Source of the DNA: Eledone cirrhosa
Lineage: Eukaryota
NCBI GenBank assembly: GCA_964016885.1
Contig: OZ024743.1
Location: forward strand, 8,866,001-8,930,000
Reading direction: 5' to 3'
DNA: 64,000 bases
Shown here piece by piece: positions 43,301 to 62,396 of the stretch (its first letter is position 1; each line of letters starts with the position of its first letter). The notes beneath the pieces are model-generated. The model was not told the DNA's origin, ran no database searches, and was given only the letters and a program-made list of their open reading frames with translations. Both the position numbers and the translations under genes were made by a program.

Positions 43301-46300
43301 TATTTTATCTTGTGGCAGTAAAGATGGTGTTAAGATACTTGAATTGATTGATAACTTCCAGAATCGCACGATTCAGTATAATGGGGATCCTTTATCCTCT
43401 AGTATATGGTGAGATGCCAGGAGATTAATGCCTTCATCTTGGTTGCATTGATCTCTCATGTCAACATCTGCGTACACGTTGAGTCATCAACTACTGATTG
43501 AACATCGACATAGTTATGACCAACTATTTTCAAAGTTATTGGCATAGTCAGGGTCAGAGACCCTGATGTCTCATCTCATAGCCATGTCTGGGAAATCCTT
43601 TAGGCTACGTTCTACAATTCAGTTGATGACATAATTGATCTATGTTGGAAACAAAACATAACCCTGCCAGACACCTGAGTGAATTTCTCTAGTTTTGGTA
43701 TCACTGTAGCTGGACAGCTGGGGGGGGTTAAGCTTCCTAAAAGTTGTTCCATATGGCAAGTGCAACACAATCACCTCTGTAGGACAAATGCTCCTCCCAT
43801 GCATCCTTGTCGCCACACTGGCGCTACTTAATAGGGTTGGGTGTGAAAGACTGTTCACCTAAAAATTCCAGAATGTGTTTGCTCTGAGATCTGGCAGCTA
43901 CTGGTAGCACTGGCCTCTGTATCTGCAAGTTTCTTTTGGAATGTCTCCATCTTCTATTAAATTGAAATCATGTCGGTGCTGTTGATATTTAACAGCGAAG
44001 AGTGCTGCTATAAATCACACTGTCTCAAAGTGTGTATGCTTGTACCTGGAGATCTGCAAAAATTGTATCTCCAATGAAACCCCAGAGGCAGCGTATTGGA
44101 GAAGTGCTTGAATAAGAGAGTAATAGAAAAGGGCTTAGTGGGGAGATAGAGATAAAGAGAGATGTTAGAGGATGATTATATATATATATATCATCATCAT
44201 CATCACCGTTTTAGTCCGTTCTTCCATGCTAGCATGGGTTAGACGGGTTTTCCTGTTGTGGGCAGTGTCTGGTTGGCTGACCATGCCTTGCTCATACAGG
44301 AACTGATTTTGGCTTGATTTCTACAGCTGGATGCCCTACCTAACACCAACCTCATTTACAGTGAGTGCTGGGTGCTTTTTTCCGTGGCGCCTACACGTCC
44401 ACTTTACAGTGTTGGCTGGGTGGTTTTTTGCCGTGGCATCTCCACGACCACTTTGCAGTGGGAGGGTGTGGTGGCATATTGTCTATATGCTTCAGCTTGA
44501 ACCCATGGGAGATCATGGTCGTGTGTCATCGCCTTTGAGAGGTGTAATTGGGTAAGGTCGGCTTTTATCACCTTATCCCAGGTCTTCTTGGGTCTCCCCA
44601 CTCCGCGGTTTCCATTGACTTCTAGTGCTCTGCACCTTTTTATGCAGCTGTCATCCTTCATACGCATCACATGTCCATACCAACGCAACCACCTCTCCTG
44701 CACACAGCATTTGATTCCTCTTATGCTCAGTCTCTCTCTCAATTCATTTATGCTTTGCCGTTCGCGTATATTACTATTACACATCCATCGGAGCATGCAG
44801 GCTTCGTTTCTTTCTAATTTACGTAAGTCTTCCACCTTCAGTGCCCAGGTCTCACTACCATGTAACATTGCTGTTCGTATACACGCATCATACAGTCTGC
44901 CTTTCATTTTGAGGGAAAAGCCTTTTGCAGCTAGCAGTGGCAGTAGTTCCCTGAACTTCTTCCATCCCGTTCTTACCCTAGTTATTGTACTTTCTGAACA
45001 CCCACCTCCGTTGCTAATTCGGTCAACTAGGTAGCAGAAGCTATCTACTGTTTCTACAGAGCTCTCCCAGAGATTGGTGGTACTTGTTTTCTGTGGCTGT
45101 TTGCTGCCCCAGCACAGCTGCTACATGTGAAGCCTACATTCTTAATTAAGCTTCCTGAGATCCCACTACATCTCTTGTGTACCCATTGTTTGCATTTGGG
45201 GCAGAGAATGGAGTTCGTACCTACACCTTTCCTACATACTGAGCAAGGCCATTTCCCTGAGGGTATCTGGGTTCTGTTTTCTACTCTACTTACAAGGACC
45301 TTATATATGGAGGCACATGGCTTAGTGGTTAGAGCATTGGCCTTGCAATCGAAAGGTTGTGAGTTCAATTCTCAGACCAGGTGATGTGTTGTTTCCTTGA
45401 GCAAGACACTTTATTTCACATTGCTCCAGTTTACTCAACTGTAGAAATGAGATGATAGGGACTGGGGTCCATATCATTCCACTGCAAAGTGGTCGTGGAG
45501 GTGTCACGGCAAAAAAAGCACCCAGCACTCACTGTAAATGAGGTTGTTGTTAGGAAGGGCATCCGGCTGTAGAAATCAAGCCAAAATCAGTTCCCATCCC
45601 ACCCTTGCAAGCAGGGAAAAAGCGGACATAAATGAAATGTTAAAATGATGATGATGATATATCAGTTCTTAATCAGAGCTACCGATCTCTCAGATGAGTT
45701 GGGGTTGGTATCTTGCAGAGTATATCAGGTGCGTTTCTGTGGCGCAGCACTAGAGAGGTTGTGCTCTTGACACAGCTAAAGAGTCCTCACACAACATTAT
45801 TTTTCTTGGTTTCTATGGTTTGATCTCCTTCCTAACCAATCTTTTTACAGGGTGTACTGGGTGTGTATTATTGTAGCACTAGCACTAAGGAGGTTGTTTA
45901 TTGGTCATGGACTTGACTAAATAGCCTTCTCAACCTTATGAGGGCTGGAATAGGATGTATCCTAAGGTAAGGGTCAATGGGGCGGAATGACAAGTATAAT
46001 ATCGTGGGTGTATTATAAGTACGGTGGTGGTGGGTGAGGGTAGAAGGGGTTAGAAAGTATGTTAAGTTTGTAAAATAGGTGTGATGGGATTTGGCGAGGT
46101 GATAAAATGGACTGGATGCTGATAAAGAACAGCTACTAATGATTTATGATTGATGCTTTAGGATTTAAACAGGATGGAAATGGTCCTATGTAGTGTTAGG
46201 GTAGGGTGTACAGTGATGGTGAGGATAATTATTATTGTGCATATATTGGAGGCACAGAGACTCATGTGGATGGGTCTGGTCACACTTTTATGCTGGTAGT

Positions 46301-49300
46301 CAGGTCTACTCCAGCACATTATGTCGTTAATCCCTACAGCCCTTTGTCATCTCCCATAAAGTTTAGTCTTCACTATGTCATCCCATGTCTTTCTAGGCAT
46401 GCCTCATCCATGAGTTCCATCCATTAAGATTTCTTTGCACTACTTTATACAGCTGTCATTTTTCATATCCATCACATGTCAATACCAGCGCAGTCTTCTC
46501 TCTTGAACACTCCATTCAATTCCATTTATCGCAAGTTTTTCTCTCAACTTACCTCTGTTCTGATGATCATGCATACTAACATTACACATCCACTGTTTAT
46601 TTCTCCTTTATGTCTGCTGCATACAAAGTCTATCTTGTGTTAATTTGCCTGTAACCCCACTATATCTCTTGTGCATCCATATATTACACTGTATACACCT
46701 TATGGAGTTTCTCCCCACTCCTTTTCAAGATATCAAATAAGGGCCATTTCCCTGGCAGTATCAGAGTTCTGTTTTTCTAAAATACTGAGTTTTTGCTAAG
46801 TTTACTATTAGATCTTTCGATTCTAGATGTTTCTCCCATGTTTGGAATTTCTCCTCTAACTCTTTCATGGATCCAGCTATAACAACTAGATCATTATCAT
46901 ACAGGAGCTATTATTATGTCTCTAATCAGTTGTGCTATAAACCTTTCAGTAACTTTCATAATCTGTTCTATCAACTTGATTTCTCTATATATGAATGACA
47001 CTATCCTCAGGCACATAAATATATGTATGTATGTGTGTATGCATATATATATCATCATCATCGTTTAACGTCTATCTTTCATGCTAGAATAGGGGAAGCA
47101 GAATACACTACCAGGAAGCTAGTAGAGAAGCTAGGTGACAAAGTATACTTAGCAAGGAGGGAAGCAGAAAATTAAAAAAATTAAGCATTTTTTACTATGT
47201 GAGGTATTCAGGATTGTGAGGCAGTGTGTCGGAAAATTGTGATGTTGTTGGGGAGAAGTGTGTCTGAGATGATAATGGTGCACTTGCCCTAACTGATGTT
47301 GAAAATAAGGTAGCATGGAAGAGCCATTATGAAAGATTACTGAATGAGGACAATGCATGGGATGAAGATTGTCTACCTCAAGTGGACTCAACAGAGGGAC
47401 CAGCTGTACAAGTCAGTAGCAGTGTAGTAAGGAAATTAAGGATATGAAGATGGGGGGAAAGCAGCTGGATGATTGGGGAAAGTTGCCTAGATGCTGAAAA
47501 CATATGGAATTGTGGGTCATATCTTAACCAATTAATGCAAAATGGTGTCATACCCAATGACTGGCATAGCATCATCATCATCATCATCATCATCATCAAC
47601 TGCTACAATGGCAAAGGAGATGCACTAGACAGAGAAAACTATAGAGGTATCAAATTGATAGACTAGGTCATGAAGATCATAGAAAGAGTTATAGTACAGC
47701 TGATTAGGGATCGAGTTAACCTACGTGAGATGTTGGGTTTTGTGCCAAGTAAAATTATCACTGATACATTCTTCCTTTTGAGGCAACTGCTGGAGAATTA
47801 CCTAGCTAAAGGTAACCCCCTCTACATGGCATTTGTTGATCTGGAGAAAGCTTTTATCAGAATCCCTTGTTCCATAATCTGGTGGGTTCTTAGAAAACTT
47901 GGGGTAGATGAGTGCATTGTGAAGGCAGTACAAGCCCTGTATAGAAGAGCAATCAGCAAGGTTAAGATTAACAATGAACAATGACTATAGTGAAGAATTT
48001 AGCATGCAAGCAGTAGTTCATCAGGACTCTGTTCCTGGCCCTTTCCTGTTTATTAACGTCCTGCAGGCTATAAAAGAAAAGTTTAAGACTGACTGGCCAT
48101 GGGAACTCATATACATAGAATATCTAACCTTCGTAGCTGAGTCTATGGCAGAATTAGAGAAGAAATTCCAAACCTGGAAGCATGGCCTAGAATCAAAAGG
48201 TCTTAAAATCAACTTGGCAAAGACTAAAGTCCTAGTAAGTAGAAAGGAAAACATTGCCCAGATCCCCTCAGGGAAATGGTCTTGCTTAGTGTGCAGGAAA
48301 GGAGTAGTAGGTAGAAATTCCATCCTATGTCTCAAATGCAAACTATGGATACACAGGAGGTGTAGTGGGATCTCAGGCAGGGAAGCAAAGAATGTGGGTT
48401 TTGTATGTGGTTGATGCACAGGAGCAGTAAGTAGCAAGAGCTCTCTGAAAACAAGCTCCTTTAAATGCCCTGATTTTGACCTGATGCACCAAATTGTAGA
48501 AAACTGATTTGATTGTTTGAATTCATATAGGAGAACTATGTCTAGCTAGTAAAGTAGTGACTTGTTGGGATTAGCTGGGATTAAGCTGAACCTTGAAAGA
48601 TATTCCAGCTTTGACCATCCTGTCCTTTTGTATATCATTCCCTACTAACGTTTGTGTGTTTTTTACTAACATTTATTGTCAGCATATCTATAATCAAAGA
48701 TGTTTGAGCCATAACAATTCCCTTGTTATTGATGTTATTTATTCCTTTGCTCATTTTCTTATTGAAGGAGACTTATATAATCAGACTTTACATCCTTGAC
48801 GATGTCTCTTTTTTCTTTTCCAATAGACTTAAAGTATTTAGGACTACAGTATCCAATGTGTCTTTCTTAACTATGAGACTGTAGGGTGTAATTCTAGTGA
48901 AGCTTGCCTACTATTTCTAATGTCAATTGACCACATTAACTGATATTCCAAGGGTTGACTTGCCACTTTATGACATCTACATTTTGATGTTAATTGCAGT
49001 GTGCTTTCTCTCTGTCTGTGTGTATGTGTGTTTTGGAGTGAACAGTAGTAAGCGATTTCATTGGTTGAAAAGTGAAGCAATATTGATGTGAACATACGTC
49101 TACTTTTGGTTCTGTACATTCACTGTACGAACAGAAGGTAGTTCAGACGGAAACAATTTTAGTTTATGATATATATCATCATTATTCTGTTATATTTTTT
49201 ATTCTTTTATTGGTTTCAGTTATTAGGCTGTGACCATATTGCAGCACTGTCTTGAAGGAGTTTAATAAATCATACTGACCCCAGTATTTATTTCTAAATT

Positions 49301-52300
49301 TGGTACTTATTTGATTGACCTCATTTTGTTGAGCAACTCAGTTACAGGACATATATATTGATGGACAGTCGTGCACATTATACCATAATCATCATCATCA
49401 CCATTTAATGTCCATTTTTCTACGCTAGCATGGGTTAGATGAGTTGTCCTGTTGTGAGCCAAGCCAGATCAGATGACCGTGTTTTGCTCATACTGAATTG
49501 ATTTTGGCTGGATGCCTTTCCTAATGTCAACCACATTCACAGAGTGGACTGGGTGCTTTTTGTGATGACGCCTACACGACCACTTTACATTGTGGACTGG
49601 GGGGCTGTGGTGGTGGAGGTGCATGTGGATTGGAGAGGTAGATCTAGGGTTGGGCACCTAGTGCTATTCGTACACATACATCATACAATCTGCCTTTCAT
49701 TTGGAGGGAAAAATCTTTTCTAGCTAGCAGTGGTAGTAACTTGTTACCTGTGAATGTTTGTTACTGCTCCTGTACAACAGCCACAAGTAAAACCTACATT
49801 CTACATTCTTAGCTAACCTACCTGAGATCCCACTACATCTCTTGTGTACCATAATTTACATTTGGGACAGAACCTTTTCCTACACACTGAGCAGGGCCAT
49901 TTCCCAGAAGTTATTAGGGCCTTGTTTTCCTTACTACTTACTAGAACTTTGGTCTTTGCCAAGTTGACTTTAAGACCATTTGATTCCAGGTTATACTTCT
50001 GTGTCAGGATAAGCTTCTGTAGTTTCTGTCTACCAAATTTCACTCACAACATGAAGCTGTAATAGGTGACACTTGCCCAAGGTACTATGCAATGGGACTG
50101 AACCTAAAACCACATGGTTGTGAAGCTAACTTCTGAACCACACAGCCATGCCTGTGATTATACTTACACTTTATCTTATTAAACAGAGATTTATTAAATT
50201 TACAATGTACTGTTAGGTTGGTAGGGATTTCACAGAGACTGTATGTCTTTGCTTGAGATTTTGAAGAAAGTTATTTGAAATATAAAAAGAAAAAAATTTA
50301 AATGATAAAGTTTGTCAATATATAACAAAGAAAACAAGAGAGAGTATTGTGTGAATGAAACATTGTCAGACAATGAAATTTTTATTGAAATTGAATCAGT
50401 AGTAGAGTTAGCAGTAGTAGTAGTATTAGTAGTAGTTATTGTAGCATTTAGTAGCATGTAAGTGGTATTAGAAATAATATGTGCAATAAAATGACATACA
50501 AAAGTCATAACATTGGCAATAAAATATTGAACAACCCTTATAGATTCATTCTTATAAATGTGGGTTACCTGCTGACCACCACTACTTCACTCACAACACT
50601 CAAAGGCCATTCACAGCTGTTGGTGGAGGGAAGATTGGTAAAAGTGAATGAGAGGAAAATGGAACTAAATGGAATAAAATCTTTCTATAGTATATTTGAA
50701 AAATATTTATTTCAAAGTTATTTATTTTAATTCTTCATCCTATTTTAATTGCATTTCTGTTATACTCTTAAGTATTTCTATCACACAATCACTTTGATAA
50801 TTAATCTCTATTTGTCAATGTAAATTTCTTCATCTTTTCTGAGTCTTCTTTGATGTTCTTTTCTTCAAGATATTTAAATTAAAATAATTTTTTATTCATA
50901 ATTCTGAAATCACTGTAAAACCTAGCCTTAATTTCACTACTAACTGCTTTGAAGTTTTAATAGTATGGGTTGTTAGTTCAGGAACCTATTTGATCCTGTT
51001 GTTGGACAGGCAACTGAATGAAAGAATGACTAAAGTAATTCAATTAATTTCTACAAATTGCTATGTTCTCAATAATTATAAAGTCCCATTCCTCTTTTGT
51101 ATTATTTTAGACTTAAGTTACTGAATCTGTAAGCTCCTTATCTATTTATTGTTTTGAATGTGTTTTTTATTTGCAAACTTTATTCCTAGTAAACTCTGAA
51201 ATTTTCAAAGTATTTTCTGATATTCTTAATTAATACCTATTAGTTTATAGACTTTGGTAAAGGTTACTATGTTTTCAAGTAGTCCTTTTATATAAATATC
51301 TCCACATTAGAGTTAAGACTGAATTTTCAAAGACATTATTTATTTGATCTCTTTTATCTAAAAGGAAATTTCATTAAAAGAACTCAGCTAAAATTTAGAA
51401 ATCCTTAAATATTACTATTTTAATTTTAAACTTTATTGATGCATTTTTTATAATTTTTTAAAATACAAATATGTAAGTATTGAGAGGAAATGGGTTAGAA
51501 GAGAGTATTAATAACCCGCATAATTGGACCCTTTACTTTTTGCCTTATTTAGATTTAATTTCTTAATCCACAAGATTCTACACTGAAGCATAACTCATTA
51601 AAATAATTTATAATGCTAATATTTCCATTAACGCAATATTATATTTTGCTTTAAGACTTGCTTTTTTCTAAAAATTTTCAAAGAATTTTAATTTATAAGA
51701 AATCTTATTAATTACCATTATTTTCAAATTATTGTTATCATTATCATTATTATTATTCCATTATATATGAGATAAAGTTCTCTTTGTGATGTCATTTGTT
51801 ATGAAAAGTTAGTGCTTTAATCACTTGAGGCATATTTCCTTTCAAACTTTACCCCCCACCTATTTTTGTTGATACCAACATCGGAATGAAATAATATAAA
51901 AAGGTCCACTATATGATCTATACAATGTTTAATTTAGGTGGGTGAGTGCATTATCTTAATGCATTAAATAAACCATGTCTAATTCTATCTGCAAACAAAA
52001 CTTTATAAAATTCTTTCACATGTAAAAAAATTAAATTTTCTGTTTTAGAAATTAAAAAAAAAAATCAACATTATTGAAATTAATTCAGAAAATAATAAGC
52101 TATAATAAAAGTAGCTGGATTAAAAGAAAATTGAAATAACCATAGCAGTGATTGTGAATGTGGTGTGATTGTTTCATATTTTCCAAGATCATTCCATTAG
52201 TGTTTTTGAAATTTTTTTATCACGTTTGTCTTATTGGCTTGGCCATGTACTATTTTCACTTTGAATATGGTCTTGTATGAAATGTCATGATCAGCAGCTA

Positions 52301-53560
52301 TCTGTATCATTTACAGCAGAATCAATAATAAACATAATTTGAACGGTGACAAACCATATTTCGCACTCATTCACAGATTCATACCTTTCTTTTTGTTATT
52401 TGTTCTTTCTCTCTTTGAAACAGAAATAATCACTGTGTGTATGTGTGTGAGTGTGTGTATGTCTACCTGTGTGTACACATATGTTTGCATGTGTGTTATT
52501 CTATTCTTAAAAAACATTTGATTCTTTCTAAAGAAAAAATGACATTTGAATATTGCACCTATTGCAACTGAAGCATTGACAAGACAAAATCCTTTTCAAA
52601 CAATTGCTCACTCTCTAAAACCTTTATTGTATTTTGCCTTCTATGAAGCCTTTCAAATACAGTTAATGCTTTTATTAAACAACATAATATAGCTTCCGAG
52701 TTGCACTTAAGACATTGCTGTAATATGAAAATGATATCAATGTAATATTGTAAGCATTAAGTTGACCCTTTTTTTCATGTCTATTGGAACTGAAGTATGA
52801 AAATGTATGTTTTGCAAGTAAATATTATTGTTACAACTGCAATGAAATTTCTTTTATTTCAATATTCATCAGTTAGATGTTAACTTTTATTACTTTATTT
52901 CTTTTAAAGACAGTTCTTGACAAAGAGTACATTTAAATAGACATTTATGAGAAAAAGTTTGATAAGTTTAGGGAGACATTTTATAAGGAAAACTGGTAGT
53001 AATATAACCTGCATATTGTTTAGCCTTTAAAACAAAGCAATATTGCAGTGGTAGGTATGTGCATTTAATTATTACTCCATACAGAGTGATAGATGTGTTC
53101 AACATATTGACAAAATTTAATTCACTACAACTAACATGTTTGAAAAGTTAACACCAAATTTCAGCAGATAGAAATTGGGTTCTTGTCAGTATTCAGTGGA
53201 CATGCCTTCTAGATAGACAACAGGGTTATCCTCAGAGGTATTCTTGTATATTACTTATTCTCCTCTTTTCAACACATTTTGCAAAGGACTAAATTATTGC
53301 TTATTTTATGTTATTTCTGCAAAGTTTAAATTGTGCGTTTTTTCCTTTGTGTTCACAGGAAAAGTAAAGAAAAGCCAATTAATGTTACACCCTTAACTTT
53401 TAATGTGCAATTTCATAGAGAGAAAAAAAGGAGACATTTTAGTTACATTTATGCACTATACTTAACAATTTTAATTTACTTAATCTTTCATCAGAAGTAT
53501 CTTTCAATCATTTCTGCTTATGAATCAAATACTTATTTGAGAGAGGAGCCCCACCCCATC

Positions 53561-53591
<31 letters not shown>

Positions 53592-56500
53592 GACAACAAC
53601 TTAATCTTATATATTTAACAATTGCAACAGAAAAATAAGATGTTTCTTATGAATTCTTTAGATGTTTGGTATTTACCTCTTGAAGGAAAGTTTTTTTTTC
53701 TTTTTGGCATATCTGAGATTCTTCTCTTGTGAGAGCACACCGACTGATACTGTTAAGAATAAGCCAAGTTTCTCTTTGAATTGAACATTAGTTATGTTAA
53801 ATTTTCCTTCCTCTCATCCATAAGACTATTGCACATTGGTGATTTACTGTTTAATTAAACTACTGTTTGTTAAGTTTACTTATTACATCTGCCTCTCTGT
53901 CAGACTGAAATTGCGCATAATGTACATGAATTGTTTTTTTTTATTTTTGTTCCTTAAAAAAAAAACAACAACATAAATGGTAACAACTGATTGTTTGAAT
54001 CAATTGTTATTACACAGTTTATGATCCACTATACACAGCTACCACAGTACAAAAGAGAAACACTGAAAAAAAAGAAGTATTTTTTAAAATTTATTTTTTA
54101 TTTTTGACTCGATTGTCAAATTCTAAATCTCCTGCTTTCACTTGAGGATGTAGAAAAAGGCAGATTTAACTTAATTTCCAATATTTGTCTTTCTGATTTA
54201 AAGATAGCTTGACCTTAATAATAATAATAATGATAATATTAAATAATAGTTTGTTACACCATGCACTTTTTGAATTTTTATTTTTCATATTTTAAATATA
54301 ATTTTTGTGAACTATATCAGAAGTTGGAATGTTCATCTTCTGTTTTGCTGGAGAAGGATAATAGAAAGGAAATGTCCTTTGTGAAGCTAACTCTCACTGG
54401 AATTATGTTATGATTTTCTAAGTTTGTAGTTTATGACACAGCCATATTGAGCCCTTCATTAATCTACTGTGCACTGGTTGTATTCATTGTGTGCTCTGTA
54501 AACTGTCCTATTCAGAGAATATTTCTATCTAGTAGGAAGAATGACATGAAAATATGAAGTCTTAGTTGCATTTAAGTTTTCTTATATCACTACCAAATTA
54601 GAACTTTTTAGTTTCCTTTCAGCAAATATTTATTTTAAAAAATATTTTTGACAAGTAAGCTCCTCCTTATTGCTGTTAAGTTCCAATGACTAAGATTATC
54701 AAAATGTAACACATCTGCCTGATTATAGTTAATCCTCAAAGTGAAATTGGATTGTGTGGCAGGTCAACAAGATACAAGTGAGCCAATTCTTTGACATATT
54801 ATCACACTATGCAATTGGTTTTGCACTTTAGAATAAAAATAATAAAACCAAAACAACAGTGACAAGAAAAATTACAGTCTGAGCATTGAAATAGTAAAAA
54901 GTATAAATGAATTGTCTATTAGTGTTTATTGCTTTCACTGGAAAAGTTCCAAGTTATGTACAAATAATCAAATTAATAAAAAGGCATGTAAAAACATTTA
55001 ACTACTGATGTCAAAATTGTTCAAGATTTCGTGTAAAACATTTTTATTTTGAAATTATAAATATTTTTCATGTTATAATATATATAGAATTAGTTTTATT
55101 TTTGATGTTGGGATAAAGATAAAAAGTTTAATGCTTTGGGTAGATTTAAAAACATTGGGATTAAAAATGGGGGGAATAGTTTAAAATACTTTATTTTTTT
55201 TTTTTAAATAAAATTTGGATACCGTGTAGAAATTTATTAATGATGTTATCTCATTTAAAAAGTCTTCTATTTTTGTCAATGAAATTGATATAATAAGTAG
55301 ATCTTAAATTAGTAAAATTAAATTTACAATCTAGTAAAAACACGTGCTATTGTTGCAGGTGCTTTGGAATTTACATATATTTATGTATAGTTGTATATTT
55401 ATACATAGACATATGAATCGAGAGGATGGATGTTCTATCTACAAGTGCATACAATTATATCATATACATTAAGACAATGTCTATAATAATCTGAAACCAA
55501 CGGTATAGATTAAGAGCAGGCATTTATGGTCAATATTATTATTTCTATTGACTTTTACTCCTCTTTATCAGATGTTTGTATTTCAGGTTTATAAAGCAAG
55601 CATATTTGACTAGTGACATCAGCAGACAACATCATTGAAACTAGATATTCCGTGTAAATTTTGATTCGTAGTTCTTCATCTACTGAGCTATGAAAATTAT
55701 TGCTTCTCGAATGAGTACTGTTATTGCTTGTCGAATGGGAACTATAATAAAAAGATATCCCTGAAGAGCAGAATTTATTTTTAAAATTTTTTCTTTTAAG
55801 TTAAGAGCGAACTTTTCAGTTTGGAACAAAGCGACATTCTTGTTCATTATAATAAGCACAGCCATGTTAACTTAACATAGGTGCTTTGAGAAAGTTGAAC
55901 ACATTTTTTCAGTCAATATATATCGATGTTCATAACAACTTTTATAATCGATGTTAATTACAATTTCTCATCATTAGTTTAAATTTTAACATTTTCTTCA
56001 CCTTATTTTATCTTTTTTTTTTGTATATATTTCTCTGTAAAATAGTCACAGAGTTCACCAGTGGAAGAAGAAATTTTGAACACTCTTTTTATTGCTCAGT
56101 GAATATTTAGTGGCAGTCTCATATTTTATATCAGCATGAAAATATATTGCTATAACATTTGTATATTTTTGCTGTACACATATGTATCCAGAGAGGTCAT
56201 AATCTGTAAAATAAGACATCAAAGCAAAGATATATAAGGCCAGCTAAGGCTTATTAAAGATTTTACAAAGACAATTTTCAGCAGAGAATATCCAATAAAT
56301 TGTAGATTTTTAAAAGACAATACTTTTTTTTAAATACTTTTTATATAGAATTAATTTTTAAAAATGTACAGTGTTAATTTTCATAAAACATTTTTATATT
56401 GCTTTGAATTTAAACTTTTATTTTAATATTATTTATATCTTAGGACTTTTTAAAAATTGGTTTCTCCTCCTTTCACTTTAGATTATTTCATATTCTGTAT

Positions 56501-59500
56501 ATTTGGGAAACTTTTATTTCTTCTTTGTTTTAAGAAGTTATTTAAAAAAGAAATATAGTGTATTTTCATTCTAGTGTTTACTTGTTCCTCTCTATTTATT
56601 TAATATGTCAATAACTTAATTTATCCAAATCTTATATTAAATTATTTTGCTTCTATATTAACATTTTTCTTGGTCTATTTTTACCCCCTCTTATTATTAT
56701 TATATTATTTTCTTTGCAAGTTACAATTGAATTTCTTCAATTTCACTCATCAGTTTCCTTTTTCCAAATCTTTCAGTTCAATGCCTACATTCTTTATTTA
56801 TCAAGTTCTTATTTTAGGAATTTCTCAGCATTTCAACTTTTAGACATTTCAATTGTCAACTTAAACAGGGAGGGATTTTATTTCATCATTTTTCACTGAT
56901 TGCCTTTTTACAGTAATTTATCATGTTTAATAGATAATTTAATTTCAATTTATATATTTTAAAACTATTGTTTTTCTTCTGTTGATTAAAAAGAGATCAA
57001 TGAGTCAGTGGTCATATTGATTTAAAAAAACTCTGATCATTTAATATTTAGTTTGAGTTTGAATGTTCAATCATTAGTGCTTATCATATTTTCAATTATG
57101 GAAGACTCTTTTTTATTAAATCTCTTTTAAAGATTGCTACATAAAGCTAGTTTTGCTTATTAATTAGAATACATTAAGATTATATTATTGTGTCCAGAAG
57201 AGAAACCATTGTGGTCTTAGATATAATTATTGCTGTAATTTCAACTTATCTCACCTCTTATCATGTAATATACTTGGACAGGGGGAAAAATTGTCACTCT
57301 TTTTCTGTAAATGATCCATTACAAAATTCTTTTGTGACTTAATGAGTCAAATACAACATTTTATCATTTCTCTCATCTCGAGGAAGTAAACGAAAACAAA
57401 TAAAAAGAAACCCCCAAACAAATAAAAAAACAATTCACAAATGGAAAATAAATGGTTTTTGTTATTGTTGTTAACAATTTAGATTTCATCTACATTTGAC
57501 CACATTAAAGTGTCTAAGAATATAACAAAGACATTCATTAAAATCTCCCATTCATTATTATTATGAACTCAATGGAAATATTTTGAGTTTGATTGATTCT
57601 GGTTCTTTGACATGTTAATGAAATTTTTAAATCAAAGTCATTTGAAGCTAGCTAATCATTAATAATAAGGGCTAGCTTCTTATTTAAAATATTTGATAAT
57701 TTCTCCCCTTCCCCACTCCACTTACGTAAATTGAGCAAGCTATGATTTAAAAAAAAAGGGTGAAAAAGATAGTATTATATGGTCACCATGTTTAACGATA
57801 AACAGAATGAGTGTTATTCCAACCGTAACAAGGATAATAGCAATAACAATGGGTTAGTGTTGTCTAAGGTCATGCATGGAAGTTAGCAAAGAGCAGGAGG
57901 AATGAAAATTGCAGTTACCTATGTCAAATTATTATTAGTATTATTATTGATCTTATTTTGTTGTTGTTATTATTAGTATTATTATTATTATAGGCTGGTG
58001 CAGGGTATTTTAATGTGTTCTAGAAATTTTTATAGAAAATGATTAAGAAAATAGTCTTTGATGAATTATTAATTTTTTTTTTTTTTAAATGTTTCATTTT
58101 CCCAATTGAGAAATAAGTTGAACTTCAACTTATTAATCCTGTGTATATAAGTAGGTACTTTAGCTGTTAGTGTGTGTACCTAACAATGAAACATGTCATC
58201 TTAGTAACATTAGCTAATAGTAAAACACTTAAGGAGAGTCACCTCATCTGTTAACTATCTCAGCGGTTAGTGTACCGAGTACATCAGTTGTTAGTAAACA
58301 ATTAATCATATAAAAGTTTTCAGTTGAAAATTAAATTAGAAGAAACTTCAAATTATTTTTTTTCATATATTTTCGTGACACACAGAATGTGTATATGTTC
58401 TCATATAATTTTAAACAAAAAAGCAATTAGTATATATCTTGGGATGTGGCTATTGATGTGGACTGGTGATAATTTTTTTTAAAAAGAAAATTTCTCTTTT
58501 GATCTACACTACTGGTCTTACAAATGAGCTGGTGTCTTACTGTCTTACACAGGAAAGTACCAGCTAATATAATAATAATAATAATAATAATAATTAGTTG
58601 TGGACATGTTAGACTTTGGAATTAGGAAAAGTGATTAATTGTCATTTGAAATTTGATTATAACATCTTGTCTGTCTCTTCAGTTAGCAATAGAGATGGCC
58701 AAGTTAGCCAGTAGATATTGTTTCCTTGAAGGAGGAGACAAAGATGAAAAATAGACAAGGAAAGCAGTGGGGGAAAATACCCTGAAAAAAAAATAAATGT
58801 CAGTTTATAATTCATATTCTGTGACTATTTTCTTTTTTTTTTAGTGTTCAGTCATTACTATTAGTAGGTTGGAGTTATTGTGATTTTCATGTATTCTCTT
58901 GCTCAAGGAGAATTAATGTTTTGGGTTTTACTTTTTCTTGTGCTTCTGCTTCCTCATATTGCAGCCTCAATACTTTGACAGAATCACCATGTAAATTATT
59001 TTTATATTCTATTATCGTTGTTTTCCCTCAACTTTCACTTTTTTTTTCGATTTGATTTTGTTTGAATTGTTTTTGTTTTTTTACCCTTTCTTTCTTTTTT
59101 TTTTTTAAATAATTACCAGGATTGTTTTCAGATTCTTTGCAGCAAGGGTTAATTGGTATTGTCAACATGACAAGAGAGAGTTTGAAAGAGTGAGTGAGGG
59201 GAGAAAAAAAGAAAAGAGATGTGGTTGTATTTTGATAAAGTACCTTTTAAATCTTTTTTTTTTTTTTTTTTTTTTTTTTTGCACTTTGCTTTGTATTACT
59301 GGACAGTTGAACCCAGGTGGGCTTAATATACTCTGCTGCATTACCATAAGTTGTCTTCAGTCTGCCTAGAAAGAAAGGATATAAAAAATATGATCAAAAC
59401 TATATTGATTAAGATTAATTGCATTGGTTGTATATATTGTGAAATTGGAATTTTATAGGAAAGATTTCATTATTGTCTCAGATTTTCTCTTCCTTAATTA

Positions 59501-62396
59501 AATAGTATAGGAATTGTTACAATGTTTAAAGTATACTGTTGGATGTGTGTGCATGCAGCATAGCCAGATGGTTAAGAAGTTCACTTTGAAATTGTTAGGT
59601 TTTGTTTTTGATCCCACTGCATGGCATCTTGTCAAGTCAACCAAAACTTTTTGAGTGCAAATGGGTAGATGGAGACTGTTGGGAAACCTATCGGATGGAC
59701 TGTACCTGTGAAAGGGCCAGCTTTGTCGCACACTTCATCACACTGAATTTCCCTCTATTGAACAAACAACTAGAATACATTGTTGAAACTGATTGAGGTT
59801 CATTCCATTGAATGTGCTTAATGAAGAGTGCTATGCAGTTTGTTTATCTTGGATGAACATATATCACTGTAGTAATTAAGAGAGGGAATGGGTGTTTGTG
59901 GATTAGTGGTTGTAGTGTGTTGGTGAGTGAATATTTCCCAGTCAATAGTGAACAAAGTGTTTTGAACTTACGACTAAAGATGCAATTCATATTCTTTCAG
60001 GATTTCCTTAATATGAAAATATACTAAAGCTTATTGAATAAATATCTTTATAATTAAATAATAATTAGATATTTGTTTCTTGCCTTTTTAGCTTACCTTG
60101 TCTTTATCTCTTTTTTAGAAAAGGCGTGGCAGGAACAGCATGAGGCAACTGAGGATCACTGCATGCATGGTAGGCTGTGTCGGAACCGTGGAGCTTGTAC
60201 AGGTTTTGTTCATCTCTTCATCAGCTAAAACATATAACAACATTTTATGGTTTAATTTGCTTAGAACATTTATTAATGAATAAAACAGTTTTTCTTATGC
60301 TTAATGAGCAATCAGAGATATGAGGGGACATAGATAAGGTACACATACAATCTGAATTAAGATATCATTGTCTGAAGGAATTAATTTATCGCTGAGTTTT
60401 TACTATTTTTAAAGATTTTATTTAAAGATATTTTGTAATCTACAATGATTACGTAAGGACCTTAGATTTAATTGTATGACTACATGTGCATGTATGTGGA
60501 GGGAGAGAGCTGATATTGTTTCATAGTCTATGAAGTTTATGGCTACTCCAAATATTTCAATAATTATTAGTTTGGATATCTGATTAAAAGAATTTCTATT
60601 GGATATATCTTTCTAACAAATTATATACGCACTTAGGAATTTTAAGCAAAAATAATTTCATTAACATAAGTTGAAGTTGTGTAGTAGATGTAGTACTATT
60701 AATAAGTAGTAGTAGTAGTAGTAGTAGTAATAATGATGATAATGATGCTAATTTTATGAATATTACCAAATGAAAAACTAAATTTTTCCACCTTTTCTTC
60801 AGTTGGAAGTCGGTGTTATTTTATGCATCTCCTATGTGGGAGTATTATAACCCTAATGTCAGTTTTGGAAGCAGTTATTGCTCGTCACTCATATCAAATG
60901 CACCTCAGGTAGGTAGCAAAATTACTTCTATAAACTATCAACTATTATCTATTTTTATTCAATATTTATTTCTGATGTTGAATAATTTAGCCCCCCCCTC
61001 CCCATTTTTGACATTTTATGCAGTAATTTTTATTTGCCATGAGTTTTATTTTTTTTTTCATTTTTTTCTCTTTCTTTCAGATTTGATTGTGAAAGAAGGT
61101 TGATTGAAATAATGAAAGTCTGTTCAGAATGTAATGTTGTATGACTGAATTGTTGATATCATTACTCGTTGAATGAGAATATCATATTATAAATGAAAAT
61201 AGTTAATAATATAATGATGTTAGTCTAACTAGTAACTGCTTAGATAATGCTGCAGAGATCATATACAAGCTACTTTCTGATTGTCTTTAGTTCAGATGTT
61301 ATCTGAAATATATTTTAAAATAATTTTTCATCCTCATCATTCTTATAGCTGTTGTCATCATTTTAACAAAACTGGTTTGGATGAGATTGGTATATAATGC
61401 AATGTCCCCAAAGTTTAAGTTTAATGCTACAAATTATAGTTTACTTATCCATTCACAAAACTTGACAGTTTAAAATTGACTATATTTATATATTTTCTCT
61501 TTTAAAGTAAAGCCGAGTCTTCCATTCGAGTTGTACGGATTCAACTTAACAATGGCGAGCGTGTTGTTGGTATCCGTTACCCAGAACGTCTCATTGGTGA
61601 GGTTGAGAAAGTTCTTAGAGAACATCAGCTTGTCAATCAGTTGCAGATGATGAATAATAATGTAAGTATATATTGCTATATAAGTTGCCTTATTTTCTAA
61701 TGAATTTTATTTTTCTGTTGTCTTACTGTATATTTTTGTTTTTGTGCTCGATTTTCTGTTGAATTCTATTTTTGTTTTATATTCCAGTCAACGATGCAGT
61801 CCAATGACACCGTTATACCAAATTTTAATTCTTCATCAAACAAGTTGATCATTGAAGCTGCCTCTCCAGTGATTCCCAAATACGTTAACAAGGCATTCAC
61901 TCCACCATTTAACATGAACTCATATTTAAAGTCTGGTGCACGTAGTCACACGATGCCATCTTCAATAGGCAGAACTACTTGCAAAGTGAGACAGATGGAA
62001 CAAAATCATCTGGTCAATGATTCCAATAATCAGCTTATGCCATATAATAGTGCACCAGCACAACATTCCCTATCCATTGCTAGCAGTACTACAAGTAATA
62101 ATTTCAATAAAGGGGTGTCTTGTAGCGCTATTTGCAGCAGCAGTGAGAGTGGTATTGCTAGTAATGCTTACAAAGTAAATATGTCCCGAAAACGGCGCAT
62201 GAACAACTATTACAGTGATAATTGCATTGATATGAATCGCAATTGCAAGCAACAAACTCTTGTGTCTCTCTTTACTAAAAATCGGCTGGAGGCTCCACTA
62301 GTAACTTGCCAGAAGTGTCCAGTATGTAACATGAATTTTGAGTTGGGCACTAGTAATGATCAGATCAATTCTCATGTTGATAACTGTCTTTTGTAA
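1..62396 (+). CDS. SBNO: Strawberry notch (SBNO/Sno) family SF2 helicase-like protein, divergent paralogue; spliced, 31 exons in window, 5' end upstream of window
   Basis: Exons join in frame via GT-AG introns to give [35 protein letters not shown] (Walker A)..FDECHKAKN (DExH)..[119 protein letters not shown], all hallmark Sno motifs. About 1174 codons, stop TAA at 62394-62396. Confidence 0.95.
521..628 (+). CDS. SBNO: SBNO-like exon: [21 protein letters not shown]
   Basis: tttgtag acceptor, gtaagt donor, 108 nt. Confidence 0.92.
1212..1427. mobile_element. piggyBac-like MITE family A (~215 bp)
   Basis: TTAA-CCCTTTAGCATTT...AAATGCTAAAGGA-TTAA; homologous copies at 3291, 12659, 35959. Confidence 0.8.
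1485..1571 (+). CDS. SBNO: SBNO-like exon: [16 protein letters not shown] (Walker A)
   Basis: tgtag acceptor, gtgagt donor, 87 nt. Confidence 0.95.
2297..2843 (-). mobile_element. CR1/L2-group LINE, 5'-truncated 3' fragment
   Basis: Minus frame [38 protein letters not shown] is a CR1-type ORF2 C-terminus; (ATT)n tail. Confidence 0.85.
3291..3493. mobile_element. piggyBac-like MITE family A, inserted at a TTAA inside a SINE
   Basis: TIRs plus TTAA duplication; flanks rejoin to gagaattacattaagggtaca as in the uninterrupted SINE near 10440. Confidence 0.8.
3671..3762 (+). CDS. SBNO: SBNO-like exon: [17 protein letters not shown]
   Basis: ccag acceptor, gtaaga donor. Confidence 0.93.
5035..5290 (-). 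mobile_element. Degenerate RTE LINE 3' fragment
   Basis: Minus-strand remnants of WRWIG..AMDW..GKRRP C-terminal motif. Confidence 0.5.
5836..5904 (+). CDS. SBNO: SBNO-like exon: [15 protein letters not shown]..
   Basis: ccag acceptor, gtaaat donor, phase 2-2. Confidence 0.92.
6110..6192 (+). CDS. SBNO: SBNO-like exon: [17 protein letters not shown]
   Basis: gcag acceptor, gtaagt donor. Confidence 0.92.
7297..7412 (+). CDS. SBNO: SBNO-like exon: ..[24 protein letters not shown] (Walker B/DExH)
   Basis: ttgcag acceptor, gtaggt donor. Confidence 0.93.
7703..7758. repeat. (TA)n(TG)n microsatellite
   Basis: Directly visible; other (TA)n tracts near 18625, 18996, 37325, 37810, 39889, 40268, 62631. 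Confidence 0.95.
8046..8165 (+). mobile_element. tRNA-derived CORE-like SINE (5' part)
   Basis: A/B boxes (tgactgagtgg..ggttcgattcc) followed by tccttgagcaagacactttatttcacattgctcc, same family as 21847 and 45309. Confidence 0.75.
8190..8640 (-). mobile_element. Degenerate RTE LINE 3' fragment
   Basis: Minus frame [20 protein letters not shown], an RTE ORF C-terminal motif. Confidence 0.7.
8664..8760. repeat. 20-bp AT-rich minisatellite (~5 copies)
   Basis: tatatatta(t/c)tgatatatg repeated. Confidence 0.85.
9704..9788. mobile_element. Tiny Tc1/mariner-like MITE
   Basis: Perfect 14-bp inverted ends TACCATATATACTC / GAGTATATATGGTA (including TA). Confidence 0.6.
10059..10111 (+). CDS. SBNO: SBNO-like exon: [18 protein letters not shown]
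   Basis: tgtag acceptor, gtaaat donor. Confidence 0.9.
10213..10560 (+). mobile_element. tRNA-derived SINE
   Basis: tggttaaggagtttgcttcacaatc..ggttcaaacccact..ttggcaagtg; homologous to 130, 3055, 40935 and 59545. Confidence 0.7.
11100..11163 (+). CDS. SBNO: SBNO-like exon: [21 protein letters not shown] (motif III)
   Basis: ttcag acceptor, gtaaga donor. Confidence 0.93.
11953..12043 (+). CDS. SBNO: SBNO-like exon: [15 protein letters not shown]..
   Basis: tttag acceptor, gtaaat donor. Confidence 0.93.
12659..12873. mobile_element. piggyBac-like MITE family A
   Basis: TTAACCCTGTAG...GCTAAAGGGTTAA; internal sequence homologous to 1212-1427. Confidence 0.8.
12991..13070 (+). CDS. SBNO: SBNO-like exon: [23 protein letters not shown]
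   Basis: acag acceptor, gtaaat donor. Confidence 0.93.
13239..13447. mobile_element. Foldback/MITE-like element with ~60-bp imperfect inverted arms
   Basis: agagacgaacacggatatatataactatgtgttcaaataacaaggga.. pairs with ..tcccttgtgatttgaacacatttagttatatatctgaattcgtctct. Confidence 0.65.
14330..14397 (+). CDS. SBNO: SBNO-like exon: [17 protein letters not shown]
   Basis: gacag acceptor, gtatat donor. Confidence 0.9.
14639..16698 (+). mobile_element. RTE-clade LINE, 5'-truncated and inactivated (RT + PHD-like finger + C-terminus + 3'UTR VNTR)
   Basis: [38 protein letters not shown] (one Asp of YADD deleted); frameshifts near 15470 and 15610; [14 protein letters not shown]; (TGA)n tail. Confidence 0.93.
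16096..16545 (+). repeat. 49-bp tandem repeat, ~9 copies, within the RTE 3'UTR
   Basis: ccacggcaaaaaagcccccagcccacactgtaaagtggtcgtggaggtg starting at 16115, 16164, 16213, 16262, 16311, 16360, 16409, 16458, 16507. Confidence 0.95.
16883..17079. repeat. 98-bp direct tandem duplication
   Basis: tatcaccactttacagagtg..cttctttt at 16883 and 16981, nearly identical. Confidence 0.9.
17899..18009 (+). CDS. SBNO: SBNO-like exon: [20 protein letters not shown]
   Basis: ttcag acceptor, gtatgt donor. Confidence 0.93.
18883..18976 (+). CDS. SBNO: SBNO-like exon: [17 protein letters not shown]
   Basis: ttcag acceptor, gtaaga donor. Confidence 0.93.
20062..21312 (-). mobile_element. RTE-clade LINE, 5'-truncated
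   Basis: Minus ORFs 20864-21238 (C4HC3 finger, FRYLG) and 20459-20857 (LRWYGHV..GRPRKSW); (CAT)n tail at 20062. Confidence 0.92.
21847..22179 (+). mobile_element. Full-length tRNA/CORE-like SINE with RTE-derived 3' tail
   Basis: tRNA-like head, CORE-like tccttgagcaagacac..cagctgtagaaatgag, one 49-bp unit plus RTE 3'UTR, (TGA)n; nearly identical to 45309-45658. Confidence 0.85.
22358..22409. repeat. 18-bp tandem repeat x3
   Basis: atgattcacataacttac. Confidence 0.85.
22714..22833 (+). CDS. SBNO: SBNO-like exon: [20 protein letters not shown]
   Basis: tttag acceptor, gtaagc donor, 120 nt. Confidence 0.9.
23284..23372 (+). CDS. SBNO: SBNO-like exon: [17 protein letters not shown]
   Basis: tacag acceptor, gtatag donor. 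Confidence 0.88.
23391..23542. mobile_element. Tc1/mariner (Tc2/pogo-like) MITE
   Basis: TA-CCATATTTCCCAGTGTCGAAGACAC vs reverse complement TA-CTGTATTTCCCGATGCCGAAGACGC. Confidence 0.7.
24050..24870. mobile_element. Degenerate RTE-like LINE fragments in opposite orientations
   Basis: Plus 24653+: [13 protein letters not shown] (RT); minus 24050-24420 resembles a decayed ORF C-terminus. Confidence 0.55.
25094..25265 (+). CDS. SBNO: SBNO-like exon: [25 protein letters not shown]
   Basis: tacag acceptor, gtgatt donor. Confidence 0.93.
26932..27058. repeat. Imperfect ~25-bp inverted repeat (MITE-like)
   Basis: acatcatgaaagagtcattttaacca / tgactaaaatgactcttctatgatgt. Confidence 0.55.
27139..27199 (+). 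CDS. SBNO: SBNO-like exon: [20 protein letters not shown]
   Basis: ttcag acceptor, gtgaga donor. Confidence 0.93.
28609..28738 (+). CDS. SBNO: SBNO-like exon: [28 protein letters not shown] (helicase motifs V/VI)
   Basis: tgtag acceptor, gtgagt donor. Confidence 0.95.
29285..29531. mobile_element. piggyBac-like MITE family B
   Basis: TTAACCTTTT...CAAAAGGGTTAA; related copies near 1940-2177, 4400-4647, 9657, 19630, 35377, 35802. Confidence 0.65.
29601..29686 (+). CDS. SBNO: SBNO-like exon: [23 protein letters not shown]
   Basis: ttcag acceptor, gtaaat donor. Confidence 0.94.
29800..30130 (+). mobile_element. Degenerate RTE LINE 3' fragment
   Basis: [26 protein letters not shown] homologous to the 15618 ORF. 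Confidence 0.65.
30722..30837 (+). CDS. SBNO: SBNO-like exon: [17 protein letters not shown]..
   Basis: gatag acceptor, gtgagt donor. Confidence 0.94.
30959..31039 (+). CDS. SBNO: SBNO-like exon: SELVPGI..FHKILQ
   Basis: tgcag acceptor, gtttgt donor, 81 nt. Confidence 0.85.
31737..31871 (+). CDS. SBNO: SBNO-like exon: [24 protein letters not shown]
   Basis: ccag acceptor, gtaatt donor. Confidence 0.93.
32822..32883 (+). CDS. SBNO: SBNO-like exon: IFNYF..AKREGK
   Basis: ccag acceptor, gtaagt donor. Confidence 0.92.
33200..33540 (+). mobile_element. RTE 3'UTR fragment with ~4 diverged 49-bp units
   Basis: aaaagcacccagcccacactgtaaagtggtcg repeats, then gttaggaagggcatccag..cccatgctagcgtggaa..(TGA)n. 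Confidence 0.8.
33766..33867 (+). CDS. SBNO: SBNO-like exon: YNEGLLDI..
   Basis: ttcag acceptor, gtaagt donor. Confidence 0.92.
35802..36245. mobile_element. piggyBac-like MITE B with MITE A (35959-36174, reversed) nested at TTAA
   Basis: Outer TTAACCCTTTTG..AAAAGGGTTAA; inner TTAACCATTTAGCATTT..AAATGCTAAAGGGTTAA. Confidence 0.75.
36406..36588 (+). CDS. SBNO: SBNO-like exon: [21 protein letters not shown]
   Basis: tttag acceptor, gtttgt donor. Confidence 0.92.
39098..39504 (+). mobile_element. Head-to-tail dimer of a ~200-bp tRNA-derived SINE (Meta-domain-like core)
   Basis: Two copies of ggattggcagtatcggtagag..gttcaaatccc..gcctttcatcc..ggtcgataaaataaagtacc..tagaaacaattatt; a third copy at 39998-40181. 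Confidence 0.8.
40185..40267. repeat. Perfect 39-bp inverted repeat with 5-nt loop
   Basis: 40185-40223 is the exact reverse complement of 40229-40267; loop ataaa. Confidence 0.95.
40935..41100 (+). mobile_element. tRNA-derived SINE
   Basis: ggcatggttgtgtggtcaagg..ttcagttccact..ccttgggcaaatgtcttctactat. Confidence 0.7.
41585..41667 (+). CDS. SBNO: SBNO-like exon: [12 protein letters not shown]
   Basis: tcag acceptor, gtaaat donor; completes conserved RPNTG. Confidence 0.92.
43100..44000 (-). mobile_element. Highly decayed RTE-like RT remnant
   Basis: Minus frame [14 protein letters not shown] resembles the RT motif GVRQGCVLSP. Confidence 0.45.
44191..45301 (-). mobile_element. RTE-clade LINE, 5'-truncated; close relative of 14639-16698
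   Basis: ORF 44404-44907 differs from ORF 15618-16001 at 12 of 127 aa; two 49-bp units; (CAT)n tail. Confidence 0.93.
45309..45658 (+). mobile_element. Full-length tRNA/CORE-like SINE with RTE tail
   Basis: Nearly identical to 21847-22179. Confidence 0.85.
46290..46990 (-). mobile_element. Degenerate, internally deleted RTE LINE
   Basis: Minus remnants of [29 protein letters not shown] and LRWY. Confidence 0.65.
47090..48470 (+). mobile_element. Older RTE LINE copy (RT region, many stops and frameshifts)
   Basis: [22 protein letters not shown]; FVDLEKAF; PHD-like CLVC..CLKC..HRRC. Confidence 0.88.
49385..49990 (-). mobile_element. Deleted RTE LINE fragment
   Basis: [26 protein letters not shown] plus RTE 3'UTR and (CAT)n. 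Confidence 0.75.
49991..50155 (-). mobile_element. tRNA-derived SINE (left boundary of the repeat-free block)
   Basis: Reverse complement of caggcatggctgtgtggttcagaag..ccttgggcaagtgtc. Confidence 0.7.
50190..50195 (-). terminator. Candidate polyadenylation signal (AATAAA) of the antisense transcript
   Basis: Plus-strand tttatt at the edge of the repeat-free block, about 35 bp from the flanking SINE. Confidence 0.4.
53294..57234 (-). promoter_or_regulatory. Cluster of 9 miR-137 seed-match sites (AGCAATA/AGCAATAA)
   Basis: Plus-strand TTATTGCT at 53294, 54667, 54926, 55697, 55721, 56089, 57227 and TATTGCT at 56145, 56397. Confidence 0.6.
59545..59795 (+). mobile_element. tRNA-derived SINE (right boundary of the repeat-free block)
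   Basis: tggttaagaagttcactttg..gatcccactgcatggcatcttg; homologous to 10213-10560. Confidence 0.7.
60119..60202 (+). CDS. SBNO: SBNO-like exon: [19 protein letters not shown]
   Basis: tttag acceptor, gttttg donor; Sno C-terminal Cys/His cluster; phase matches across the 18.4-kb intron. Confidence 0.9.
60803..60908 (+). CDS. SBNO: SBNO-like exon: VGSRCY..LLCGSII..
   Basis: ttcag acceptor, gtaggt donor. Confidence 0.9.
61508..61661 (+). CDS. SBNO: SBNO-like exon: ..[20 protein letters not shown]..
   Basis: aag acceptor, gtaagt donor; matches the Sno C-terminal 'RL..G.RIVG' motif. Confidence 0.9.
61788..62396 (+). CDS. SBNO: SBNO-like last coding exon: low-complexity tail, NLS, PIP-like box, UBZ-type C2HC zinc finger
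   Basis: ttccag acceptor, 609-nt open frame ending [26 protein letters not shown]-stop. Confidence 0.88.
   Translation, partial: STMQSNDTVIPNFNSSSNKLIIEAASPVIPKYVNKAFTPPFNMNSYLKSGARSHTMPSSIGRTTCKVRQMEQNHLVNDSNNQLMPYNSAPAQHSLSIASSTTSNNFNKGVSCSAICSSSESGIASNAYKVNMSRKRRMNNYYSDNCIDMNRNCKQQTLVSLFTKNRLEAPLVTCQKCPVCNMNFELGTSNDQINSHVDNCLL

Follow-up and report, generated by a model that had tools for sequence, protein, structure and literature searches.

Acetylcholinesterase (AChE) can be made with a common catalytic core and an alternative last exon, which supplies either a tetramerisation peptide (T form) or a glycosylphosphatidylinositol (GPI) anchor signal (H form). The choice between these forms via alternative 3' exons and polyadenylation is described as standard, and invertebrate H-peptides as widespread and non-homologous, in PMC5388418 and PMC3045457. 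In the snail Lymnaea, the microRNA (miRNA) miR-137 is reported to target CREB2 in its 3' untranslated region (3'UTR), where one site was tested, and to be needed for long-term memory (PMC5834643). Mir-137 is listed as broadly neuronal in Octopus vulgaris (PMC9699675, table S5). Here we describe a locus of Eledone cirrhosa in which these themes meet. It lies in a window of 64,000 nucleotides (nt; contig OZ024743.1, positions 8,866,001 to 8,930,000, forward strand), which is the whole stretch of DNA that was analysed; coordinates are those of the window unless prefixed C4. On the minus strand of the longest intron of the gene Strawberry notch (SBNO), nine seed matches to miR-137 follow an alternative AChE last exon of predicted H type. 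We consider it probable that miR-137 represses the GPI-anchored AChE isoform via a long 3'UTR, sparing the T-type isoform.

The initial annotation of this DNA had counted nine copies of TATTGCT on the plus strand in 53294-57234, seven of them as TTATTGCT, and a recount agrees (7-mer starts at 53295, 54668, 54927, 55698, 55722, 56090, 56145, 56397 and 57228). It had put the copies in the rest of the window at about seven, which is of the right order, the exact count being eight. The reverse word, AGCAATA, is absent from the interval, and the window as a whole has 8 copies of it. Markov models of orders 0-4 trained on the window predict 0.53-0.79 copies in the interval (P 5e-9 to 1.6e-7), which bears out the earlier estimate of roughly 0.5 per 4 kb. 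TATTGCT ranks first among the non-homopolymer 7-mers of the interval, and its enrichment held when all 7-mers were allowed for, any word being equally extreme in 1 of 1500 4-kb sequences simulated under a second-order Markov model. Similar P values were reached by other words in unmasked DNA, including the flanks; the one inside the window is CATTTTA, whose copies are mostly a degenerate tandem repeat. A null of repeat-masked real DNA was therefore built from 664,000 bases, comprising the window, 200 kb of flanks and 40 scattered 10-kb stretches of the genome, of which 283,694 bases remained after masking and were scored in 168 overlapping 4-kb windows. TATTGCT was the top 7-mer cluster of this null (3.3e-7; runner-up 4.4e-6), and it alone among 180 CG-free permutations of the word reached nine per 4 kb. 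The sites form no tandem repeat overall, except that those at 55697 and 55721 belong to a duplicated 24-nt unit. The cluster is thus real.

A genome-wide search with a two-site pattern gave 5 matches, including the present locus and one microsatellite; among the other 4 there is no cluster in unique sequence that compares with this one, and five is estimated to be near chance. The 7 loci found by a metagenome motif scan were all unrelated and without homology. Elsewhere in the genome, C4:241754928-241757974 holds 14 TATTGCT within 0.7 kb of GTT-rich simple repeat and is a low-complexity look-alike.

The proposed complementarity between the word and the miR-137 seed holds against the genome's own hairpin. 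A search with Rfam RF00694 found one mir-137 hairpin in the genome (75 bits, over the cut-off), the 3' arm of which starts with the TATTGCT word, and nt 2-8 of the miRNA are perfectly complemented by 9/9 sites. If the miRNA start is shifted by 1 nt, all nine remain at least 7mer-A1 sites and 5/9 are 8mer sites. An A stands opposite nt 1 in 7/9 sites, compared with 33/111 background seed matches (p = 0.006). Pairing also extends to nt 12-15 in 4/9 sites versus 0/111 background matches (p = 1.5e-5; 3/8 and p = 2e-4 without the duplicated site), in a test that is partly post hoc because the 4-mer was first noticed by eye; among 12 miRNA 4-mers tested, nt 12-15 alone stood out. The offset of this match is +1 in three of the four sites and -1 in the other; for pairing from nt 12, PMC8940178 reports an optimal offset of 0 or +1. 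The sites are seed matches to the genome's miR-137, with 8mer and 3'-supplementary features beyond chance. They are given below with distances to the AChE stop codon described further on.

57227..57234, minus strand: predicted miR-137 8mer site, nearest the stop codon (2881 nt)
56397..56403, minus strand: predicted miR-137 7mer-m8 site, with nt 12-15 match at offset -1
56145..56151, minus strand: predicted miR-137 7mer-m8 site, seed match
56089..56105, minus strand: predicted miR-137 8mer site, with nt 12-16 match at offset +1
55697..55744, minus strand: two predicted miR-137 8mer sites in a tandem 24-nt duplication, each with nt 12-15 match at offset +1
54926..54933, minus strand: predicted miR-137 8mer site, seed match
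54667..54674, minus strand: predicted miR-137 8mer site, seed match
53294..53301, minus strand: predicted miR-137 8mer site, farthest from the stop codon (6814 nt)
52551, 52560, 53041 and 53827 (span 52551..53833), minus strand: four predicted 6mer matches (nt 2-7), TATTGCA on the plus strand

The four 6mer matches are a weak excess over the 1.1-1.4 expected (p 0.02-0.05). Counted as a word cluster adjoining the main one (52551-53833), TATTGCA occurs four times, two of them as TATTGCAC, where 0.6-0.7 are expected. These words could alternatively be miR-92-type seed sites; an Rfam mir-92 search of the genome found nothing.

The transcript that would carry the sites can be named from the flanking DNA. 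Scanning the flanks for exons revealed an AChE-like one on the minus strand, downstream of the window in plus orientation and convergent with SBNO, and its identity as AChE was confirmed by homologue and cluster look-ups. The best genome-wide match to PF08674, the tetramerisation family, is below the cut-off (E 0.16) and lies between this exon and the window; the PF08674-like T exon terminates in its own stop. An Octopus AChE cluster of eight members holds three T-type proteins, one read-through, three truncated forms and one with an alternative tail. The last of these, O. vulgaris CAI9719658.1 (P0014, 608 aa), has a differing tail of 36 residues that maps to window positions 60225-60118 on the minus strand with 33/36 identical residues (92%). 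Its exons occur in order in the genome, all on the minus strand, at C4:9049509-9051047, 8997330-8997530 and 8926118-8926237. The first is one large exon coding for residues 1-513 (87% identical to P0014), and the introns after it measure about 52, 37 and 71 kb. P0014 matches acetylcholinesterases of the PDB with E 1.6e-175, and S225, E351 and H472 align with the Ser-Glu-His triad. The T exon lies 37 kb, and the H-type exon 71 kb, beyond a shared donor.

60115..60224, minus strand: alternative AChE last coding exon, H-type (36 codons; stop TAA 60117-60115; acceptor AG 60226-60225)
60119..60200, plus strand: SBNO coding exon, 82 nt, wholly within the AChE H-type exon (dual-coding overlap)

The H-type acceptor joins the shared donor (phase 1) in frame and with canonical GT-AG ends across about 71 kb. 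Inspected by eye and by hydropathy, the tail has a Cys at 9 and Thr-Ser-Ser-Thr at 10-13, a small-residue omega candidate, and its hydropathy reaches 2.9 over the last 15 residues; that of the T tail is negative throughout. The cysteine, the small residues and the hydrophobic end are H-peptide features according to PMC3045457, and the tail can be aligned with the C-terminus of PDB 5ydj. The H-type exon is predicted to encode a GPI-anchor-type signal, and it is probably used in E. cirrhosa. The H-type isoform is already in public annotation, where it is labelled 'isoform X2'. P0014 probably stems from the annotation of PMC10700109, which describes alternative forms of O. vulgaris as added via PASA transcript updates. 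The SBNO and AChE accession numbers are consecutive in two Octopus annotations.

The sites lie 2,881-6,814 nt behind the H-type stop codon, in the following features.

52400..60114, minus strand: putative long GPI-type AChE 3'UTR (repeat-poor, single copy, G/C skew lost)
57118..60114, minus strand: AATAAA-free stretch, from the stop codon to just past the first site

On the minus strand, the first AATAAA after the stop is at 57117-57112, and one ATTAAA occurs at 58014. The AATAAA-free stretch is the largest such minus-strand gap of the window; 0 AATAAA were seen versus 4.0-7.4 expected, zero being reached in 1, 0 and 19 of 1000 simulations under Markov orders 1, 2 and 3, and in 4/130 real tiles. 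Because no AATAAA separates the stop from the first site, the H-type 3'UTR likely covers that site, and because AATAAA is frequent past 57117, sites 2-9 would need longer polyadenylation isoforms. The H-type 3'UTR is likely to run over the sites. Of the two possibilities raised by the initial annotation, a heavily targeted 3'UTR or an miRNA sponge, the 3'UTR fits, with an AChE last exon on the minus strand that ends 2.9-6.8 kb upstream of the sites; the sponge is disfavoured at about 2 sites per kb, compared with the 71 sites of CDR1as, and the minus-strand transcript is probably not a long non-coding RNA (lncRNA) sponge. The antisense exon that it postulated likewise survives as a minus-strand transcript nameable as AChE, while a separate, stand-alone exon is unneeded and disfavoured.

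Two other arrangements of the AChE transcript were considered. The UTR of the T exon was rejected as the carrier of the sites, since the T frame ends 36 kb away across repeat-rich DNA; in 3.7 kb past that exon no 7mer miR-137 site occurs. A last exon beginning at acceptor 58781 was replaced by the annotated H-type exon. Predicted minus-strand splice sites able to splice the UTR occur at 60096, 59365-59117, 58781 and 57254. A predicted donor 20 nt past the stop and the strong acceptor 58781 could together take out 1.3 kb of UTR; an old dispersed repeat near 59545-59760 would lie inside such an intron.

A protein-to-genome search with P0001 and an exon scan showed that the window holds the SBNO gene on the plus strand, in 30 exons, and that the cluster sits inside its longest intron.

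41668..60118, plus strand: SBNO intron of 18,451 nt; no other of the 29 in the window is as long, the second being 4,996 nt

The repeat-masked share of this intron is 53% in the 5' half and 8% in the 3' half, the latter being below all 40 random 10-kb loci (17-100%). The repeat-poor block extends to about 50300 and, except for the old repeat near 59545-59760, is single copy. G and C counts are 656:669 in 52.4-57.4 kb versus 4646:4017 in the SBNO gene body (p = 0.005), and this loss of the G>C skew of SBNO weakly suggests opposite-strand transcription. The strand bias of TATTGCT, which had been offered as independent evidence for such transcription, stands at 9:0 in the interval (p = 0.004), a figure that rests on a hand-picked interval; across the whole repeat-poor block it is 9:3 (p = 0.15), and as evidence it is weak. 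Pumilio, AU-rich, cytoplasmic polyadenylation and Musashi-type motifs gave no strand signal. An Rfam scan of the window returned 0 matches. A nested protein-coding gene in the intron is unsupported: an exon scan of 45k-60.1k gave no such exon at score >22, the scan being insensitive because it also missed the H-type AChE exon, and four candidate open reading frames (ORFs) had no Pfam match, one of the four being the true AChE exon.

On the opposite strand, AChE extends across the three final exons of SBNO and its 3'UTR. In the SBNO exon at 60119..60200 the spliced frame is open, and its GC content (0.55) is the highest of the 30 SBNO exons. The 24 nt of the H-type exon that lie outside it, read on the plus strand, encode GFVHFFFS in three species of Octopus, and GFVHLFIS in the present window. 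In these three species they are annotated as part of a short SBNO isoform X2, which reads past the donor of the 60119 exon over the antisense AChE exon (60119-60228). This isoform may be an artefact of unstranded or mis-stranded AChE reads, or it may be a real truncated SBNO lacking the zinc-finger-like C-terminal end; as the source of the repeat-poor block it was rejected, because X2 reads through after exon 60119. The C-terminal end in question (62300-62396, plus strand) carries C-x2-C ... H-x3-C, which we take to resemble a ubiquitin-binding zinc finger. Elsewhere in the SBNO introns, 49-nt tandem units at 16100-16540, 33190-33375 and 44355-44460 represent a recurring dispersed repeat family, beside which lie ORF fragments resembling the reverse transcriptase of long interspersed nuclear elements (14.6-16.0k, 20.5-21.4k, 44.4-45.4k and 47.7-48.4k).

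Several results weigh against repression of an H-type AChE mRNA by miR-137. Any single cluster is inflated by the choice of this window out of very many, and the nt 12-15 match had been spotted by eye before testing. Over the whole duplex, the sites pair no more stably than background (-10.5 vs -10.2 kcal/mol, p = 0.31), and site accessibility is ordinary (0.54 vs 0.47+/-0.23). The H-type tail is present in only 1/8 members of the Octopus AChE cluster, and two further searches, which covered cluster representatives only, found no other protein with the H tail, one of them returning two unrelated repeat proteins. The ATTAAA at 58014 could end the UTR earlier, and 18 AATAAA occur between the first and the last site. 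The median octopus 3'UTR is given as 350-380 nt (PMC9699675), whereas the sites are 2.9-6.8 kb out.

Some of these points favour the view that an AT-rich word has clustered by chance in intronic DNA, next to a short and unrelated AChE UTR. Such a cluster draws on the large hidden multiple testing, on the ordinary duplex energy and on the near-chance number of genome-wide two-site matches; we nonetheless judge it unlikely, as TATTGCT is the top cluster in masked real DNA, and the nt 12-15 match, the AATAAA gap, the repeat depletion and the upstream last exon all lie outside the first selection. We would put no more weight on a separate minus-strand non-coding RNA, either an antisense lncRNA or a circle of AChE UTR exons, acting as a miR-137 decoy while the H-type mRNA ends earlier. 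The centrally mismatched sites with 3' pairing, one of them duplicated, would suit a decoy, as would the predicted minus-strand splice sites of the block (donor 60096, acceptor 58781, donor 57254), and Lymnaea is reported to have an miRNA-regulated antisense lncRNA (PMC12589416). However, comparable splice scores also occur at non-exon positions on the plus strand, the density of about 2 sites per kb is set against 71 sites in CDR1as (PMC4165365), octopus circular RNAs are described as low (PMC9699675), and the coding last exon upstream, with no intervening AATAAA, accounts for the transcript with no extra gene.

The remaining alternatives give the word a role other than that of a miRNA target. 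That it marks sites for transcription factors in an enhancer within the intron, or a motif for an RNA-binding protein on the SBNO pre-mRNA (plus strand), is in our view very unlikely: the block is repeat-poor and looks constrained, and reverse-orientation copies flank the interval (53036, 57839 and 58685), but the site flanks differ save for the miR-137-like nt 12-15 match, YGCY is not enriched, and the Cdx/Hox13, C/EBP and heat-shock consensus words fit only 1-2 of the nine sites by eye. The idea that diverged miR-137-like miRNA genes on the plus strand have these words at their 5' ends is scarcely credible. The same-sense identity of the words to mature miR-137 and one site that folds as a weak hairpin (z -1.99) speak for it, yet the best fold is -18 kcal/mol compared with -30 kcal/mol for the real hairpin (z -3.18), the genome search gave a single mir-137 locus and Rfam no match in the window, and the 1-nt offsets suit targets rather than paralogues. 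Precursor hairpins at the sites were rejected by the folding and the Rfam scan.

Under the favoured explanation, repression of GPI-type AChE by miR-137, use of the H-type exon antisense to an SBNO coding exon would yield a GPI-anchor isoform with a long 3'UTR. In neurons, Argonaute loaded with miR-137 would bind several of the UTR sites and lower the level of GPI-type AChE mRNA, leaving T-type mRNA unaffected. The choice among tandem polyadenylation sites would determine which share of sites 2-9 the mRNA contains and so tune the repression. Neurons rich in miR-137 would then be expected to shift from the GPI-anchored dimer to the T-type enzyme. For binding, repression and anchoring we rely here on established miRNA and AChE biology. 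More speculatively, and with clear reservations, miR-137 might act as an isoform switch for cholinergic tone in the nervous system of octopus, in which a polyadenylation-tunable nine-site UTR is combined with a tie between SBNO and AChE by shared codons and, possibly, a duplex of sense and antisense RNA accessible to ADAR editing. The proposal gives a deeply conserved neural microRNA an isoform-specific target that can be tested, and ties this microRNA to the clearance of acetylcholine in octopus. A GPI-signal exon on the reverse strand of another gene's codons would also offer a route for the repeated 'invention' of H-peptides. Antisense isoforms of this kind are easily filtered out or mis-assigned by annotation.

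A literature search, which placed subscription papers on octopus AChE outside its scope, found nothing linking miR-137 and AChE, nor any mention of AChE-SBNO overlap, so that the absence of either from print is not established; the one co-mention seen, in PMC3984890, is unrelated. Among described systems, the locus resembles AChE H/T systems in its common core and alternative last exons. It differs in that the H-type exon lies 34 kb past the T exon and 71 kb from the donor, is inside and antisense to another gene's coding exon, and has behind it a candidate UTR of several kb that bears an miRNA site array. With miR-137 and CREB2 of Lymnaea, as presented in PMC5834643, it shares a molluscan neuronal miR-137 and seed matching in a 3'UTR; here there are nine sites versus one, the target is an isoform of a transmitter-clearing enzyme, and the interaction is predicted from sequence. 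CDR1as/ciRS-7 likewise carries numerous sites for a single neural miRNA, antisense to another gene and in a number above permuted controls; according to PMC4165365 it is a circle with 71 sites, whereas the present array has 9 in 3.9 kb of what is most likely a linear mRNA tail, and the tens of sites at high density that mark a sponge are not seen. The conserved 8-mer response elements described in octopus 3'UTRs by PMC9699675 are alike in their canonical 8mer targeting and in the neuronal Mir-137; antisense transcripts are stated to have been filtered out in that study. The locus would combine three known kinds of arrangement, a multi-site miRNA target, H/T exon choice and antisense dual coding.

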